From assembly GCA_050010515.1 (NCBI GenBank), contig JBEKKX010000050.1:1-14678 (forward strand): a DNA stretch of 14,678 nt, read 5' to 3'. The stretch comes from Candidatus Bathyarchaeia archaeon (GTDB lineage Archaea > Thermoproteota > Bathyarchaeia > Bathyarchaeales > Bathycorpusculaceae). Below, in pieces: positions 1,914 to 5,982 of the stretch. A program made the position numbers and the translations under genes. Every line of letters starts with the position of its first letter. Positions within the stretch are counted from its first letter, which is position 1. A model generated the notes under the pieces. The model ran no database searches and was not told the DNA's origin. It saw only the letters and a list, made by a program, of their open reading frames with translations.

Positions 1914-2210
1914 GTGAAGTTTGTGGTAGAGCTGGGGATACCAGAGCTAACCACTGAGCAAATAGAAATTTTATGTTCAACAGCAGAGAACGCAGCTAGA
2001 AAATACGTTCTCTCTAAAGTTCACTCTAAGATGGTTGATAAGTTGGATATTTGTGTGGAAGCCGCTGGGTCAAAACCAGTAAATGTTACTGTAGAAATAG
2101 ACCTTGACTTGGCGCCAGCAGCCAAAGACATTAATGCAAAAATGCTGGTTAAAGAAGCCATAAACGAAGCCCATAAAGCCAGTGAAAACTACTTGAGAAA
2201 AATAAAATGA
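1914..2210 (+). CDS. DUF3194-family protein (real start possibly GTG at 1923, after a GAGGTG RBS)
   Basis: IPELTTEQIEILCSTAENAARKYV...VTVEIDL pattern. Its position between pfdB and a DHH gene is a familiar archaeal arrangement. Confidence 0.8.
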   Translation: MKFVVELGIPELTTEQIEILCSTAENAARKYVLSKVHSKMVDKLDICVEAAGSKPVNVTVEIDLDLAPAAKDINAKMLVKEAINEAHKASENYLRKIK

Positions 2211-3214
2211 ACGATTTCCAAAATCTAACAAAAATTTTAGAAGATAATAAAGCAGCTTTTGTCCTTTTATTATGCCACCGCAGTGCAGACGCTGATGCAA
2301 TATGCTCAGCTTTCGCGTTGCAGGGTTTGCTAAAACGGTTTATGCCAAATGTTATAATTGAAGTTGGATGCCCTCAAGGCATCAACAAGCTTTCCAAGCT
2401 GCTTCTTGAATATCTGCCTATAACTGTTAACTTGAACCCGAACATTGAATCAGCAGACGTCATCGTACTCTTAGACACGAACACTATTGAACAGCTTGAT
2501 CAAGTGGCTACGGTAATAAAAGAATCTGCAGCGCCAAAAGTAATTATTGACCATCACTCTCAGAACCCAGAAACAACTAAAATCTGCAACTTATGCATAG
2601 TAGATGAGAAAGCAGCTGCCAACTGCGAAATAGTCTATAAGCTTTTCATGCAAGCAAAAACTGATCCTGACCCGAACGAGGCTAAAGCTTTGTTTATTGG
2701 TATAGCTTTTGATACGCGACATTTTGCTTTGGCAAATTCATCGACGCTACAAATCGTCGCTAAACTGGTAACTCAAGGAATTGATGTGCAGGAAACATTG
2801 GCGCAGTTTGCTCTACCAATAGACTCTTCTGAACGCTTAGCGAAGTTGAAAGCTTGCAAAAGAGCTAAAATCGTAAGAATCAACGGGTGGATAATTGCCC
2901 TCTCCCATGTTAGCGCTTACCAAGCCTCAGCAGCTAAAGCCCTAGTTGATTTAGGGGCGCACATGTCGGCTGTTGCGGGGCAGAAAAACGGGAAAATAGC
3001 GATAAGCCTACGTTGCACACGCCAGTTCACTGAGCAGGCAGGTGTCAATTTAGGAAAGGACATTGCGGCGCCTTTAGGTGAATACTTGCAAGGAACCGGC
3101 GGAGGTCACGCCATGGCGGCTGGGGTAAGCGGCACTGGCGAGATAGAGCCAACGCTTAAGCAGTGTCTGCTGCTGTTGAAGCGGGTTCTGTGTACTTCTC
3201 GTCACCCAACTTAA
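2207..3214 (+). CDS. DHH/DHHA1-family phosphoesterase (NrnA/RecJ-like)
   Basis: Motifs HxxADADA, LLDT, IIDHH, DTRHF, SLR and GGGH. ATGA overlap with the upstream gene. Confidence 0.93.
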   Translation: MNDFQNLTKILEDNKAAFVLLLCHRSADADAICSAFALQGLLKRFMPNVIIEVGCPQGINKLSKLLLEYLPITVNLNPNIESADVIVLLDTNTIEQLDQVATVIKESAAPKVIIDHHSQNPETTKICNLCIVDEKAAANCEIVYKLFMQAKTDPDPNEAKALFIGIAFDTRHFALANSSTLQIVAKLVTQGIDVQETLAQFALPIDSSERLAKLKACKRAKIVRINGWIIALSHVSAYQASAAKALVDLGAHMSAVAGQKNGKIAISLRCTRQFTEQAGVNLGKDIAAPLGEYLQGTGGGHAMAAGVSGTGEIEPTLKQCLLLLKRVLCTSRHPT

Positions 3215-3238
3215 TTTTCTTTTCCATGTGAAAAATCG

Positions 3239-3802
3239 TCACCTAAACAAGTTATCTTCTGTGTAGAAATCCGATGCCTTTGGTGTCATCTCTTTAGGAA
3301 GGCTCATACCTAGAAAGTTTCCAAGCAATTTATAAGTCAGGTCAAGTGTCTCCTGTTCATCTTTAATGGAACGATAGTAACAGTGCAGAATTTCATGTAT
3401 GTATAAAGCGGCTAAATTAAAAACAAATGTTTGCAGATTTTTTAACATAAGTCTTGTAAGTGGTTCAAAATTAAGATAAATCACGTTTTCTAAGTTGCTA
3501 GTCATAGCGAATCCTAGAGTTTGCCCTTTAGGTTTTTCTCGTTGGTGCGAATAATAATTAGACTGCTTTTCTATCCTTTCGTACTCTGCCTGTTTTGCAA
3601 TAAAAACTAATTTGATGACAGGCTCTTCAGAATTTAAATGATTTTTTACATAAGCACAACAATCCAAGAACAAGTGATCAACAAAATTATTGAAATCATT
3701 TTGAAAATCGGTTTTTTTCATTATATCCATTAACTGAAGTGAATACAGAGTTAATTTTGAGTTCTTTGGAATGTCAAAGTCCGCTTGCTTTACATTAGCC
3801 AT
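3239..3802 (-). CDS. Hypothetical protein with an HExxH zincin-like metallopeptidase motif
   Basis: 187-aa ORF. LYIHEILHCYY is followed ~8-10 residues later by Glu residues (DEQE) as a possible third ligand. AT-rich. Confidence 0.65.
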   Translation of the reverse strand: MANVKQADFDIPKNSKLTLYSLQLMDIMKKTDFQNDFNNFVDHLFLDCCAYVKNHLNSEEPVIKLVFIAKQAEYERIEKQSNYYSHQREKPKGQTLGFAMTSNLENVIYLNFEPLTRLMLKNLQTFVFNLAALYIHEILHCYYRSIKDEQETLDLTYKLLGNFLGMSLPKEMTPKASDFYTEDNLFR

Positions 3803-3960
3803 TAATCAATTACCTAAGCTTTGTTTCTTAATTAGCCGTATTTGTGTAAGGGTTATTTAAAACAACCGAACAGTTAAACGATGCCCTTGATTTTCTACTG
3901 TCGAAGGCGAGAACAAGTGGAAAACTCTAATACAAAATGCAAGTAAACACTAAATCTTTG

Positions 3961-4297
3961 TAGGTGCCTAATTATAAATAAATTTCATGTTTAAGGATTT
4001 CAGTACCCTAAAAATATGGGTGCCTAAAAGTTAAATATCTGCAAACGTATTAGAATAGTTAGGTGCCTAAAACGAAACTACAAACACAAGTATCACGCAG
4101 GAAAAATAGTAAAGAATATACAAAGTATCTCATTGTAATACCTTCAAAAACTATTAACCAACTGCAATGGACAAAAGGAGACCAACTGATTCCTACAGTT
4201 GACGGAAAAGTGTTAAGAATAAAGAAAGCACGTTAGCCAAAAACCTTATTTAGTTGTTAGGTGCCTAATATTACTAAGTGACTTATGTAAGTGCCGA
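3961..4297. promoter_or_regulatory. Cluster of palindromic (T)TAGG-TG-CCTA(A) operator-like sites
   Basis: TAGGTGCCTAA at 3961-3971, TGGGTGCCTAA at 4017-4027, TTAGGTGCCTAA at 4059-4070 and 4257-4268. Degenerate copies are TAAGTGACTTA (4275-4285) and TAAGTGCCGA (4288-4297). Confidence 0.75.
4063..4236 (+). CDS. Small AbrB/MazE/SpoVT-type DNA-binding protein (57 aa)
   Basis: Not in the ORF track. GTG start, MPKTKLQTQVSRRKNSKEYTKYLIVIPSKTINQLQWTKGDQLIPTVDGKVLRIKKAR*. IxIPxxxxxxLxWxxGDxL is the swapped-hairpin signature. TATA-like TTAAATA at 4031-4037. Confidence 0.88.
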   Translation: MPKTKLQTQVSRRKNSKEYTKYLIVIPSKTINQLQWTKGDQLIPTVDGKVLRIKKAR

Positions 4298-4386
4298 GAG
4301 AGGGAGTCGAACCCTCGCTCAAGAGCATGTGCCCCCGCCAAAGGACAACGTCACGCTCAAGCTCGTCCATCCCGAATTGTCTCGGC
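4292..4386 (-). ncRNA. tRNA-like RNA (tRNA mimic or degenerate intron-containing tRNA), 95 nt
   Basis: Perfect 7-bp acceptor stem GCCGAGA/TCTCGGC plus discriminator A. Perfect T-arm GAGGG-TTCGACT-CCCTC. D-arm-like TTCG-GGATGGA-CGAG. The anticodon arm is replaced by an extended helix. Confidence 0.75.
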
Positions 4387-4423
4387 AATTACTTTTATTT
4401 TTTTATGAAAGCTTAACCATTGA

Positions 4424-4810
4424 TTATGTAAGTTGTTTCTTTTCTATCTTAGTTTCTCTGCCAGCTTGTTTACTTGAAAGAGCATTATGTCCTGTTTCCG
4501 TAAGTGCATAATAGATTGTTTTTCTTTTGCCTATATGAAATCCTACAACGTAATCAAATTTCATCAATTTATTAAGGACATCTACAGTATAGATTATAGA
4601 TAGGTTAGCTTTCTTAGCAAGTTGTTCTCTTGTGAGAGGTTCTTGAGCATTTAGCAGGACGTCTATAACTTTCGTTGTTCCAATTGTTGTAGTAAATTCA
4701 AGTTCGGCAAATGTTTTCTGCACATCTGCTATAGTTTGGCGTTTTCCGCCTATTATTACTACTTTTGAAGATATGTCAACTGTTCCTTTCAACGTCATTT
4801 TAATCATCAC
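4424..4810 (-). CDS. Winged helix-turn-helix transcriptional regulator (TrmB/MarR/ArsR-like)
   Basis: PLTREQLAKKANLSIIYTVDVLNKLMKFDYV...YYALTETG is an HTH plus wing with a YxLTxxG ending. An AGGTGA RBS overlaps the annotated GTG, so the true start may be a few codons downstream. Confidence 0.85.
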   Translation of the reverse strand: MMIKMTLKGTVDISSKVVIIGGKRQTIADVQKTFAELEFTTTIGTTKVIDVLLNAQEPLTREQLAKKANLSIIYTVDVLNKLMKFDYVVGFHIGKRKTIYYALTETGHNALSSKQAGRETKIEKKQLT

Positions 4811-4982
4811 CTAGAGATTACACATTAGTTATATTTAAAGTTACTTAATTGTTAGTCTAATCACCAATGGAATCTGGCAAATGCTGTTTAGTTGTAAGCT
4901 TAAAAATCATGATTAAGTGTTGGTGAATTGGTAATTTAGCTAACAAAACAACTGGTGTCTAAACCTACACTTATATCATCAG

Positions 4983-5040
4983 CCGAAATTTCACATGAAC
5001 CCCATTTCAACCGAAGACTTCACAGAACCAGAATCAGGAA
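4983..5040 (+). repeat. Direct repeat, copy 1 (~58 bp; 32-bp perfect core CCGAAATTTCACATGAACCCCATTTCAACCGA)
   Basis: 4983-5014 is identical to 5925-5956. The next 26 nt match at 19/26 by manual alignment. Confidence 0.95.
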
Positions 5041-5247
5041 CTTTTTTTAATTAACGCTTGTTGCTGTGAGCTAGCAACAACATATATCTATATATTGAGT
5101 TTTGTATAATTGAGAGCAGTAATTCATAGTCTGCTTTCATAAATTATTACTTACTTCTTTGAGGTATTATGGTTAATAATATATAGGTGTGTTTACAATA
5201 TAACAAAAGCAAGAGTGAAAAAGGATAGTGATTCTTTGGGATTAAGG

Positions 5248-5334
5248 ATGCCAGCAAGAGCAATAATAAAAAAATGCGCTCATCAAGTCATTAATAAAAA
5301 CAGAGAAGTTTTTGATGAGTTAGCAAACCATTAA
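5248..5334 (+). CDS. Putative minimal Phd-like antitoxin peptide (28 aa; 39 aa from GTG at 5215)
   Basis: Not in the ORF track. MPARAIIKKCAHQVINKNREVFDELANH* ends 27 bp before the Doc gene. The amphipathic ...NREVFDELA ending resembles the neutralising C-terminal helix of Doc antitoxins. Confidence 0.65.
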   Translation: MPARAIIKKCAHQVINKNREVFDELANH

Positions 5335-5361
5335 ATCTTTAGTCTTTCATTTATCGTTTTT

Positions 5362-5880
5362 ATGTCTATTCCTATCAGCGTTGAATTGCTAAAAGCATTA
5401 CATGAAAGTGTTTTAGAGGATGACCCTAAAGCAATAAAGGGGTACAGACAAGAAAGTATGGTGGATTGTTGTTGTGAAAGACCGATGAGAAAGGTATATG
5501 GTTATGTACCTTTTCCAGATGCGGTTGATAGAGCCGCCGCTTTAATGTTTTCAATTAATGCTTTTCACCCATTTATTGATGGATGTAAAAGAACATCTTT
5601 ACTCGCAACCTATTTCTTTCTTCTTTTTAACGGTATTCAGTTTGATATTACCTATGATATGATTGATTTAACAATTAAAATCGCTGACCGTAAAATTTTG
5701 GATGAAGCAATAGTTTCGGCAAGATTAAGACCGCACTGCAGGAAGAATTTAGTCTTGAGCATTTACAGCAAAACAATTTTTCCATTAATACACACCGATA
5801 TTCATAAAAATGAAAACTTACTTGCACTTTTTATAATTCCTCTAATGGATTCCACAAGAAAAATCTGGCCTAGAGCTTAG
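5362..5880 (+). CDS. Doc/Fic-family (death-on-curing type) toxin
   Basis: 172 aa. LKALHESVL, RAAALMFSI and the Fic motif HPFIDGCKRTS (Doc consensus HxFxDGNKR, here with Asn replaced by Cys). Confidence 0.92.
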   Translation: MSIPISVELLKALHESVLEDDPKAIKGYRQESMVDCCCERPMRKVYGYVPFPDAVDRAAALMFSINAFHPFIDGCKRTSLLATYFFLLFNGIQFDITYDMIDLTIKIADRKILDEAIVSARLRPHCRKNLVLSIYSKTIFPLIHTDIHKNENLLALFIIPLMDSTRKIWPRA

Positions 5881-5924
5881 CATCTTATGGCTTCGGTAAC
5901 CCTTTTAAAACCGCGAGCTAGCAA

Positions 5925-5982
5925 CCGAAATTTCACATGAACCCCATTTCAACCGACAACTTCACAGGACCTGAAGCGGAAA
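5925..5982 (+). repeat. Direct repeat, copy 2
   Basis: Partner of 4983-5040, offset by 942 bp. The two copies bracket the antitoxin-Doc pair. Confidence 0.95.

Follow-up and report, generated by a model that had tools for sequence, protein, structure and literature searches.

A candidate non-decoding, tRNA-shaped RNA gene in accessory DNA of a Bathyarchaeia archaeon

What should be made of a stretch of archaeal DNA that has the acceptor stem and T arm of a tRNA but carries, where the anticodon arm ought to be, a long arm of another kind? The question is raised by 95 nt on the minus strand of a contig of Candidatus Bathyarchaeia archaeon (GCA_050010515.1, JBEKKX010000050.1), which was analysed over its whole stretch of 14,678 nt, referred to here as the window. 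RNAs that mimic tRNA are known from bacteria (tmRNA, Y RNAs), viruses, organelles and eukaryotic nuclei; to our knowledge, the only ones described in archaea are the chromosomal processing elements of Haloferax. A preliminary description of the locus, made from its letters alone, had proposed a selected tRNA mimic in an accessory island as opposed to random decay. The reading towards which we lean, with modest confidence, is that 4292–4386(−) is the gene for a small non-coding RNA of tRNA architecture, which would not decode, would be processed by the tRNA enzymes of the host and would belong to a small, patchily distributed family of accessory DNA.

The element, its parts and its immediate flanks are the following.

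4292–4386, minus strand: candidate tRNA-shaped non-coding RNA gene (the 'type A' element), 95 nt; based on the sequence, the cloverleaf MFE fold, the scores of covariance models R1 and R2 (below) and four further distinct members
4380–4386, minus strand: acceptor stem 5′ strand GCCGAGA, pairing 7/7 with 4293–4299; 3/7 pairs changed on both sides among the five members
4362–4376, minus strand: D arm, a 4-bp stem (with one G.U pair) and a 7-nt loop with an invariant GG; stem invariant in 5/5 members
4320–4361, minus strand: long arm where the anticodon arm would be; basal helix conserved (element positions 26–35 with 58–67), tip variable (4330–4351)
4300–4316, minus strand: T arm, a 5-bp stem and the loop TTCGACT; 2/5 stem pairs changed on both sides
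4292–4299, minus strand: acceptor stem 3′ strand (4293–4299) and discriminator A (4292), which is A in 5/5 members; CCA not encoded
4239–4291, minus strand: 3′ trailer ending in a run of five T (4239–4243), a likely terminator
4387–4423, minus strand: 37-nt A-rich spacer between the stop codon of a winged-helix (wHTH) gene and the element, from the sequence and the ORF coordinates

The minus-strand letters are exactly those given in the preliminary description. Sequence and MFE fold together bear out the intact 7/7 acceptor stem, 5/5 T stem, T loop, D-loop GG and discriminator that it had listed, the fold likewise shows the long bulged helix said to replace the anticodon arm, and the gap of 37 nt after the wHTH stop was also correctly placed (ORF 4424–4810(−)). 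The fold is a cloverleaf of −42.2 kcal/mol (z = −2.55; 4 of 200 shuffled sequences fold equally well), in which the long arm is made of a basal helix, then a bulge and then a distal hairpin. Position 8 is C and not the usual U8, and three nucleotides, not two, lie between the acceptor and D stems, so that proper folding into an L-shape is not assured. When all 2.38 Mb of the genome were scanned for a T arm followed by a 7-nt strand that pairs 7/7 with one lying 38–259 nt upstream, 39 candidates emerged, which comparison with tRNA lists, partly by reading, identified as tRNA genes in every case except the element itself and one doubtful match (C9:18956–19107). The combination of acceptor stem and T arm is therefore not background noise.

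A 7-bp acceptor stem and a 5-bp T arm with its T loop are what a tRNA would have, and in the relatives of the element both are kept through compensatory changes. The element lacks the anticodon stem and its loop of 7 nt (U33, anticodon, purine 37); here up to 10 bp of helix lead on to a hairpin with bulges, which ends in tip loops of about 4–8 nt and has no conserved triplet. The Rfam search placed the element in no family at gathering level. At E ≤ 10 the only matches were at chance level, namely the tmRNA T arm (RF00023, 12.4 bits over 18 nt, the T arm being the sole part of the element that an Rfam model aligned), mascRNA (14 bits) and, on the opposite strand, a plastid UTR. No match to the tRNA model RF00005 was listed at E ≤ 10 for the 281-nt region, where the tmRNA match masked two others of the tmRNA/tRNA clan that had lower scores. 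Genome-wide, RF00005 gave 44 matches at E ≤ 1, 42 of them above the cut-off, and the element is absent from these; it does not reach the gathering threshold of this model, 29 bits. ARAGORN reported no tmRNA at the element, and its call of a 'tRNA-Gln(ttg)' at 4291–4376(−) was rejected, being in the wrong register with a mismatched acceptor placed 10 nt inside the real one. Neither Infernal with Rfam nor ARAGORN, both of which the preliminary description had recommended, gave a valid call of a canonical or intron-containing tRNA.

The island that had been suggested around the element is confirmed by comparison with close relatives. In six of seven of these, a DHH-family gene (2207–3214 in the window) directly adjoins EcfA1 (6011 onwards), an ECF-transporter ATPase gene; in the window the two genes are separated by about 2.8 kb, bordered by an 8-bp direct repeat, TGAAGCGG, at 3177–3184 and 5972–5979. 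The insertion contains the following.

3185–5979, no strand assigned: strain-specific insertion carrying the element, about 2.8 kb including one copy of the border repeat
3239–3802, minus strand: 187-aa ORF with an HExxH motif
3963–4268, plus strand: GGTGCCTAA, four same-orientation copies (3963, 4019, 4062, 4260) around the AbrB-like ORF; 0 of 200 shuffles reach four
4063–4236, plus strand: convergent 57-aa AbrB/MazE-like ORF (Pfam MazE_antitoxin, E = 0.0015, below cut-off), with DNA conserved in genome G070
4424–4810, minus strand: upstream gene for a 128-aa winged-helix (wHTH) protein (Pfam HTH_45 matched weakly, E = 0.0026, short of the family cut-off)
5362–5880: Fic/Doc-family ORF

The copies of GGTGCCTAA are probably protein-binding repeats of the cassette, and a longer form of this motif is found nowhere else in the genome. 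ARAGORN found no tRNA at the empty site in the six relatives that lack the insertion. We considered whether the element might be the att-site relic of a mobile element that targets tRNA genes, and rejected this because about 1.1 kb separate it from the border of the insertion, the relatives have no tRNA at the empty site and the acceptor stem has both its strands.

The family to which the element belongs was missed by sequence search alone, as BLAST with a 121-nt query found no full-length relative in 61 genomes. Among 301 genomes of the family, no other match to an acceptor pattern was this element. A strict core pattern matched only the source genome among 401 genomes of the order, a pattern that by design also misses two members described below (G108 and G092), and again only the source genome among 401 genomes of the class, so that no member was found in the other 400. 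As a separate observation, many of the other acceptor-pattern matches fall, on reading, on the reverse strand of class II tRNAs. Two core patterns had no match in viral contigs, where a 25-mer of the element matched once, in a phage tRNA-Leu, and blastn of the cassette against plasmid and phage collections gave no match.

Relatives of the wHTH protein, with 49–58% identity, occur in three genomes of the genus and on three metagenome contigs. A search of metagenome contigs with this protein led to six loci, three of which are near-identical copies of the window insertion with an identical element. On another contig (L151) the wHTH protein is 57% identical and a diverged copy of the element stands behind its gene, which is where the preliminary description had advised that homologues be sought. 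A covariance model built from these two sequences, window and L151 (R1), was run on 120 genomes of the genus and gave two matches, G108 with 59.2 bits and G092 with 56.1 bits, everything else scoring at most 34.2 bits, as genuine tRNAs do; the lower matches, among those listed, have the lengths of tRNAs, some being tRNAs of the source genome itself. A four-sequence model (R2), run on 150 genomes of the family, added a copy in another genus (G259, 81.1 bits). The window element itself scores 116.4 bits with R1 and 110.8 bits with R2. Two further matches were dropped: one with R2 (G187, 40.9 bits), which is an alignment of an ordinary 73-nt tRNA, and a locus with 34.2 bits (L161, in G016), which is an intron-bearing tRNA. 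The family thus comprises five distinct sequences (window, L151, G108, G092 and G259), which fall into two or three lineages. It is rare, being present in 3 of the 120 genus genomes, and an Rfam search of the loci of the relatives gave no match.

Comparison of the five members indicates that the tRNA shape has been maintained. RNAalifold, applied to a structure-blind MAFFT alignment of four members (G259 left out), independently predicts the same cloverleaf. In the five-sequence MAFFT alignment, 95.3% of 128 pair cells hold standard pairs, and 8 of 26 pairs are changed on both sides with pairing kept: three in the acceptor stem, three in the base of the long arm, where two more are changed on one side, and two in the T stem. 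Column shuffles reached the observed value in none of 500 cases on four of five measures and in 8 of 500 on the fifth, and controls with slid partners gave at most two pairs changed on both sides. The D stem, being invariant in all five members, is uninformative on covariation, and since there are five sequences from two or three lineages the signal as a whole reflects few independent events. A tertiary covariation from G15:C48 to A15:U48 was also considered and dropped, the numbering of the D loop being ambiguous.

Four G.U pairs (11–25, 33–60, 34–59 and 71–87) work only on the minus strand, so that the fold is strand-specific. All five members agree in the D-loop GG, in three T-loop positions (T55, C56, A58), in the discriminator A and in most of the helix at the base of the long arm; the tip of this arm varies in length and sequence in every member, and no anticodon is shared. 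Between the window and L151, identity is 82.7% in the element, 61.7% in the coding DNA of the wHTH gene and 58.8% in the 3′ flank. Single members depart from the common form. In the G108 copy one acceptor pair is an A.C mismatch and position 54 of the T loop is C, and the loss of A14, which the preliminary description had stated, is true of the window copy but not of those in G108 and G092, both of which have the canonical D loop AGAYGGA. To us the element looks like a working tRNA mimic and not like a dead tRNA, because its relatives in other genomes preserve the tRNA shape. The central proposal of the preliminary description, a selected mimic in preference to random decay, is to this extent supported, in that homologues exist and covary.

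Members of the family are found in accessory DNA, usually just behind a small gene in cassettes that resemble mobile elements. That gene is a wHTH gene in two of the five distinct members and an unrelated ORF of about 100 aa in two others, one copy standing alone. In G108 the element begins 11 nt past the stop codon of an unrelated 99-aa ORF, and in G092 it stands behind a 101-aa ORF homologous to that of G108, 20 nt after a second RNA module; here an AbrB-looking ORF of 58 aa, for which a Pfam match is absent, converges on the element. Co-transcription with the upstream gene is argued by the 11-nt spacer of G108 and by the spacer of G092 being filled by an RNA module, and given these same distances, the two copies could act on their own only once processing had freed them. 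The copy in G259 stands away from cassette genes, with a TATA-like TTTAATAA about 30 nt upstream. All five members have a run of four to six T about 40–55 nt downstream of the 3′ end, which is likely to be an archaeal oligo-T terminator. The suggestion that the element may be processed from the mRNA of a wHTH gene accordingly suits the window and L151 copies, which follow such a gene, but not the other three of the five members, which do not.

Related wHTH cassettes that lack the element carry other stable modules at the same position. One, type B, is a hairpin (G070, L152, L153) that is conserved without covariation; the other, type C (G106, L153, G092), is a rod of about 115 nt in which 12 of 41 predicted pairs are changed on both sides. 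Neither has an Rfam match. An att-site function for types B and C was rejected, a second copy being absent from their host genomes, and an encoded ACCA after both modules was dropped as a 3′ tag, as type C does not conserve it and, in type B, folding predicts it to be base-paired.

Several known RNAs resemble the element in part. With canonical and intron-containing archaeal tRNAs (RF00005) it shares the 7-bp acceptor stem, the D-loop GG, the 5-bp T stem, a loop of the TTCRAYT type, the discriminator and the downstream T run; it differs from them in lacking a 7-nt anticodon loop or splice motif, in C8, in the three-nucleotide linker between acceptor and D stems and in scoring below what RF00005 would report. 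The tRNA-like domain of tmRNA (RF00023) likewise has an acceptor stem and a T arm and no anticodon, but the element is without an mRNA-like part, a reading frame for a tag or a G3:U70 pair, and we know of no tmRNA in archaea. In mascRNA/MALAT1-type 3′ modules, which are recognised by tRNA-processing enzymes, and in the YrlA (Y RNA) modules of bacteria, a tRNA mimic is similarly attached to or placed beside another transcript. The 14 bits of the element against the mascRNA model are, however, far from its gathering score of 42.5, the Rfam search gave no match to a Y-RNA family, and a Pfam scan of 16 ORFs of the window showed no Ro/Rsr gene. In its letters the element also resembles bacterial class II tRNA-Leu: the 25 nt that span its T arm, 3′ acceptor strand and A73 recur unchanged in tRNA-Leu genes at 49 of 51 loci, and 28 of these genes also start with GCCGAGA. 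The element has neither a leucine anticodon loop nor a separate long variable arm as these tRNAs do, and as the other four members differ in exactly the stems concerned, the identity is probably due to convergence or distant ancestry.

Is the element then a tRNA that decodes after all, its variable arm tip being an unconventional anticodon-loop intron removed by a splicing endonuclease of relaxed specificity? Many tRNA genes of this genome have introns in unusual positions, and the tip varies as introns do. When every single segment of 6–49 nt within element positions 8–70 was deleted and ARAGORN rerun, products of canonical length (75 nt in the count of ARAGORN) came only from deletions of 21 nt, which yielded Val(GAC) or Val(CAC). 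Such a forced-spliced tRNA-Val would be poor, with a 2-bp D stem, C8 and G32, and the same genome already has an ordinary tRNA-Val(GAC) at C21:11461–11537. The archaeal splicing endonuclease recognises a 3-4-3 bulge-helix-bulge, and by our reading of the predicted folds neither this motif nor an accepted relaxed form of it is present: in the long arm of the window copy a bulge of 2 nt and one of 4 nt are separated by 7 bp, and G108 and G092 have no 3′-strand bulge at all. Both the absence of a canonical bulge-helix-bulge and the nominal GAC left by removal of 21 nt had been foreseen in the preliminary description. On reading of the alignment, the nominal anticodons of otherwise near-identical members are GAC, GTC and TGA, so that splicing would not lead to one canonical tRNA with a shared anticodon, and RF00005 gives no match at E ≤ 1 to the element, yet scores intron-bearing tRNAs of the same genome at 35–59 bits. 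We regard an intron-bearing tRNA as very improbable. An element acting as DNA, or as a structure of no particular kind (a terminator hairpin between convergent genes, a single-strand origin or a recombination site), with an incidental likeness to tRNA, appears quite improbable too. In its favour, the genes on either side of the element converge in the window and in G092, the element is flanked by repeated GGTGCCTAA motifs, and the type B and C modules at the same place in related cassettes would fit a generic role for any stable structure, be it a terminator or a DNA-level element; but the T-loop sequence, D-loop GG and discriminator A are invariant, what covaries is a cloverleaf and not a simple hairpin, a plain terminator has no need of a 7-bp stem that closes a three-way junction, and the G259 copy is solitary, without cassette genes nearby.

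Decay deserves somewhat more thought. Here the element would be a functionless tRNA pseudogene or fragment dragged along by a mobile element, its conservation owed to recent common descent. Its distribution is indeed rare and patchy, the acceptor mismatch and the change of T54 to C in G108 are what would be expected if some copies decay, and the genome holds other duplicates of tRNA 3′ halves, typical of integrated elements, at C41:17464–17520 and C45:6083–6137. The T arm, 3′ acceptor strand and discriminator also match tRNA-Met of the same genome at 26 of 28 positions, and the 25 nt shared with bacterial tRNA-Leu genes could be seen in the same light. This tRNA-Met, at C15, was examined as a parent and rejected, as only the 28-nt T arm and acceptor strand resembles it; a near-copy of a genomic tRNA with scattered damage, named in the preliminary description as the finding that would speak against a mimic, was not encountered for the element. 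Decay is further opposed by the eight pairs changed on both sides with pairing kept, by an identity of 83% in the element against 62% in the adjacent coding gene, and by its position away from the island border, at a site where relatives have no tRNA. It does not predict that the part least like a tRNA, the base of the long arm, should be among the best conserved. Taken together, we consider a decaying tRNA unlikely.

If the element is instead a non-decoding RNA matured by tRNA enzymes, as we favour, its production can be pictured as follows. The minus strand would be transcribed through the element, either with the upstream gene or from a promoter of its own, and transcription would stop about 45 nt beyond the element, at its T run. 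An elbow like that of a tRNA would form between the GG of the D loop and the T loop. The element would then probably be cut out by RNase P and tRNase Z of the host, the former cutting at 4386 (5′ end) and the latter after 4292 (3′ end), as in the tRNA-like elements of Haloferax, and the CCA enzyme would add CCA to the new 3′ end. Genes for all three are present in the host: archaeal RNase P RNA with 177 bits, RNase Z with 358 bits and the archaeal CCA enzyme with 430 bits. Such maturation would give the upstream mRNA a fixed 3′ end and set free a stable tRNA-like RNA. That the long arm is conserved at its base yet variable at its tip hints at a specific partner, and one may speculate that this arm is the working part, offering a surface that binds a protein or serves as a decoy.

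By analogy, the system whose working is most like that of the element is that of the t-elements of Haloferax volcanii and plant mitochondria, in which cleavage by RNase P and tRNase Z is reported to determine the termini of adjacent RNAs (PMC4946936; PMC1920247). Like them, the element has the tRNA-like fold, with an intact half of acceptor stem and T arm, and stands beside a protein-coding gene. It differs from t-elements in forming a sequence family with a conserved and extended anticodon-like arm, in being located in accessory, mobile-looking DNA and in standing alone, like a gene, in one genome; cleavage of the element is moreover proposed by analogy.

A wider reading, which we offer tentatively and hold to be rather unlikely as a whole, is that small archaeal mobile cassettes carry structured-RNA modules able to stand in for one another, types A, B and C, the element being one of them. 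On this view type A would be matured, tagged with CCA and possibly aminoacylated by a synthetase that ignores the anticodon, and would act as a decoy or sink for tRNA-binding enzymes, or as a 3′ tag or primer. The possibility of aminoacylation is drawn from the invariant A73, from acceptor and T stems like those of tRNA-Leu and from a total length near that of class II tRNAs, and candidate targets of the decoy are tRNA-cleaving toxins, defence nucleases and modification enzymes.

In a search of the openly accessible literature we found nothing on tRNA-like RNAs of archaeal mobile elements or of Bathyarchaeia. A conserved, horizontally moving, tRNA-shaped RNA without an anticodon would, if true, be a testable case of archaeal mobile DNA making use of the tRNA-processing or tRNA-binding machinery of its host. 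There is also a practical side, as gene finders mislabel such elements: the tRNA-Gln call made here by ARAGORN would inflate the tRNA count of a genome bin.

The type A element, the tRNA-shaped RNA gene, is carried by a strain-specific insertion whose borders are marked on either side by an 8-bp direct repeat, TGAAGCGG (window 3177-3184 and 5972-5979), and which has replaced the last codons of a DHH-family gene. Its termini resemble imperfect inverted repeats when judged by eye (about 11/15), and no transposase or integrase ORF was found within its 2.8 kb. The features discussed here, in the insertion and in related cassettes, are as follows.

Features of the insertion and of related cassettes
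Window, about 3185-5979: strain-specific insertion, 2.8 kb, with 8-bp direct repeats at both flanks
Window 3239-3802, minus strand: 187-aa ORF within the insertion, with a HEILH motif and of no known family
Window 3963-3971, 4019-4027, 4062-4070 and 4260-4268, plus strand: four copies of GGTGCCTAA, in one orientation, around the AbrB-like ORF
Window 5362-5880, plus strand: Fic/Doc-family ORF within the insertion (Pfam Fic, E = 2.3e-13)
L022:1382-1476 (minus), L152:1904-2005 (plus) and L153:631-731 (plus): type B module, a conserved hairpin of about 95-100 nt
L024:1344-1457 (minus), L153:499-612 (plus) and L160:1367-1480 (plus): type C module, about 115 nt, a structured RNA shaped like a rod

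The four copies of GGTGCCTAA were not equalled in any of 200 shuffles (0/200 reached four), and similar motifs occur in a related cassette of another genome (G070, L022). These motifs probably serve as sites at which either the winged-helix or the AbrB-like protein binds. No obvious antitoxin gene was seen upstream of the Fic/Doc-family ORF.

The 3' part of the type A element, a 25-nt stretch comprising the T arm, the 3' acceptor strand and A73 (4292-4316, minus strand), is letter-identical to tRNA-Leu at 49 of the 51 loci compared (L097-L147), and the record titles listed for these matches name bacteria (Patescibacteria, Gammaproteobacteria and others) and one viral contig.

Among the tRNA genes of the genome holding the window, manual reading identified a tRNA-Leu(TAA) gene with a D-loop intron (C41:14305-14421), which was missed by ARAGORN and matched RF00005 only partially, and, 3 kb from it, a duplicate of the gene's 3' two-thirds (C41:17464-17520). 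A partial tRNA-Asn copy, again of the 3' part, lies at C45:6083-6137, and both partial copies resemble traces left where small elements have integrated into tRNA genes. ARAGORN also mislabelled two intron-bearing tRNAs, C58:3604-3708 as Thr(agt) and C10:19302-19400 as Leu(aag), which by eye are tRNA-Phe(GAA) and a CAT-anticodon tRNA, respectively.

In related cassettes, the type B module occupies the same position as the window's tRNA-like element, and its three copies have so far displayed no covariation. Type C modules sit 3' of small cassette genes, in one case with a type A element immediately downstream, and both sides have changed in 12 of 41 predicted pairs across three sequences. Neither module matched any Rfam family. 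About 0.7 kb from the type A copy of genome G092 is a 186-aa ORF (L160:2324-2884, minus strand) whose match to family B DNA polymerase is confined to the C-terminal part of that protein; it may represent a fragment of a gene, or else a gene split at an insertion site.
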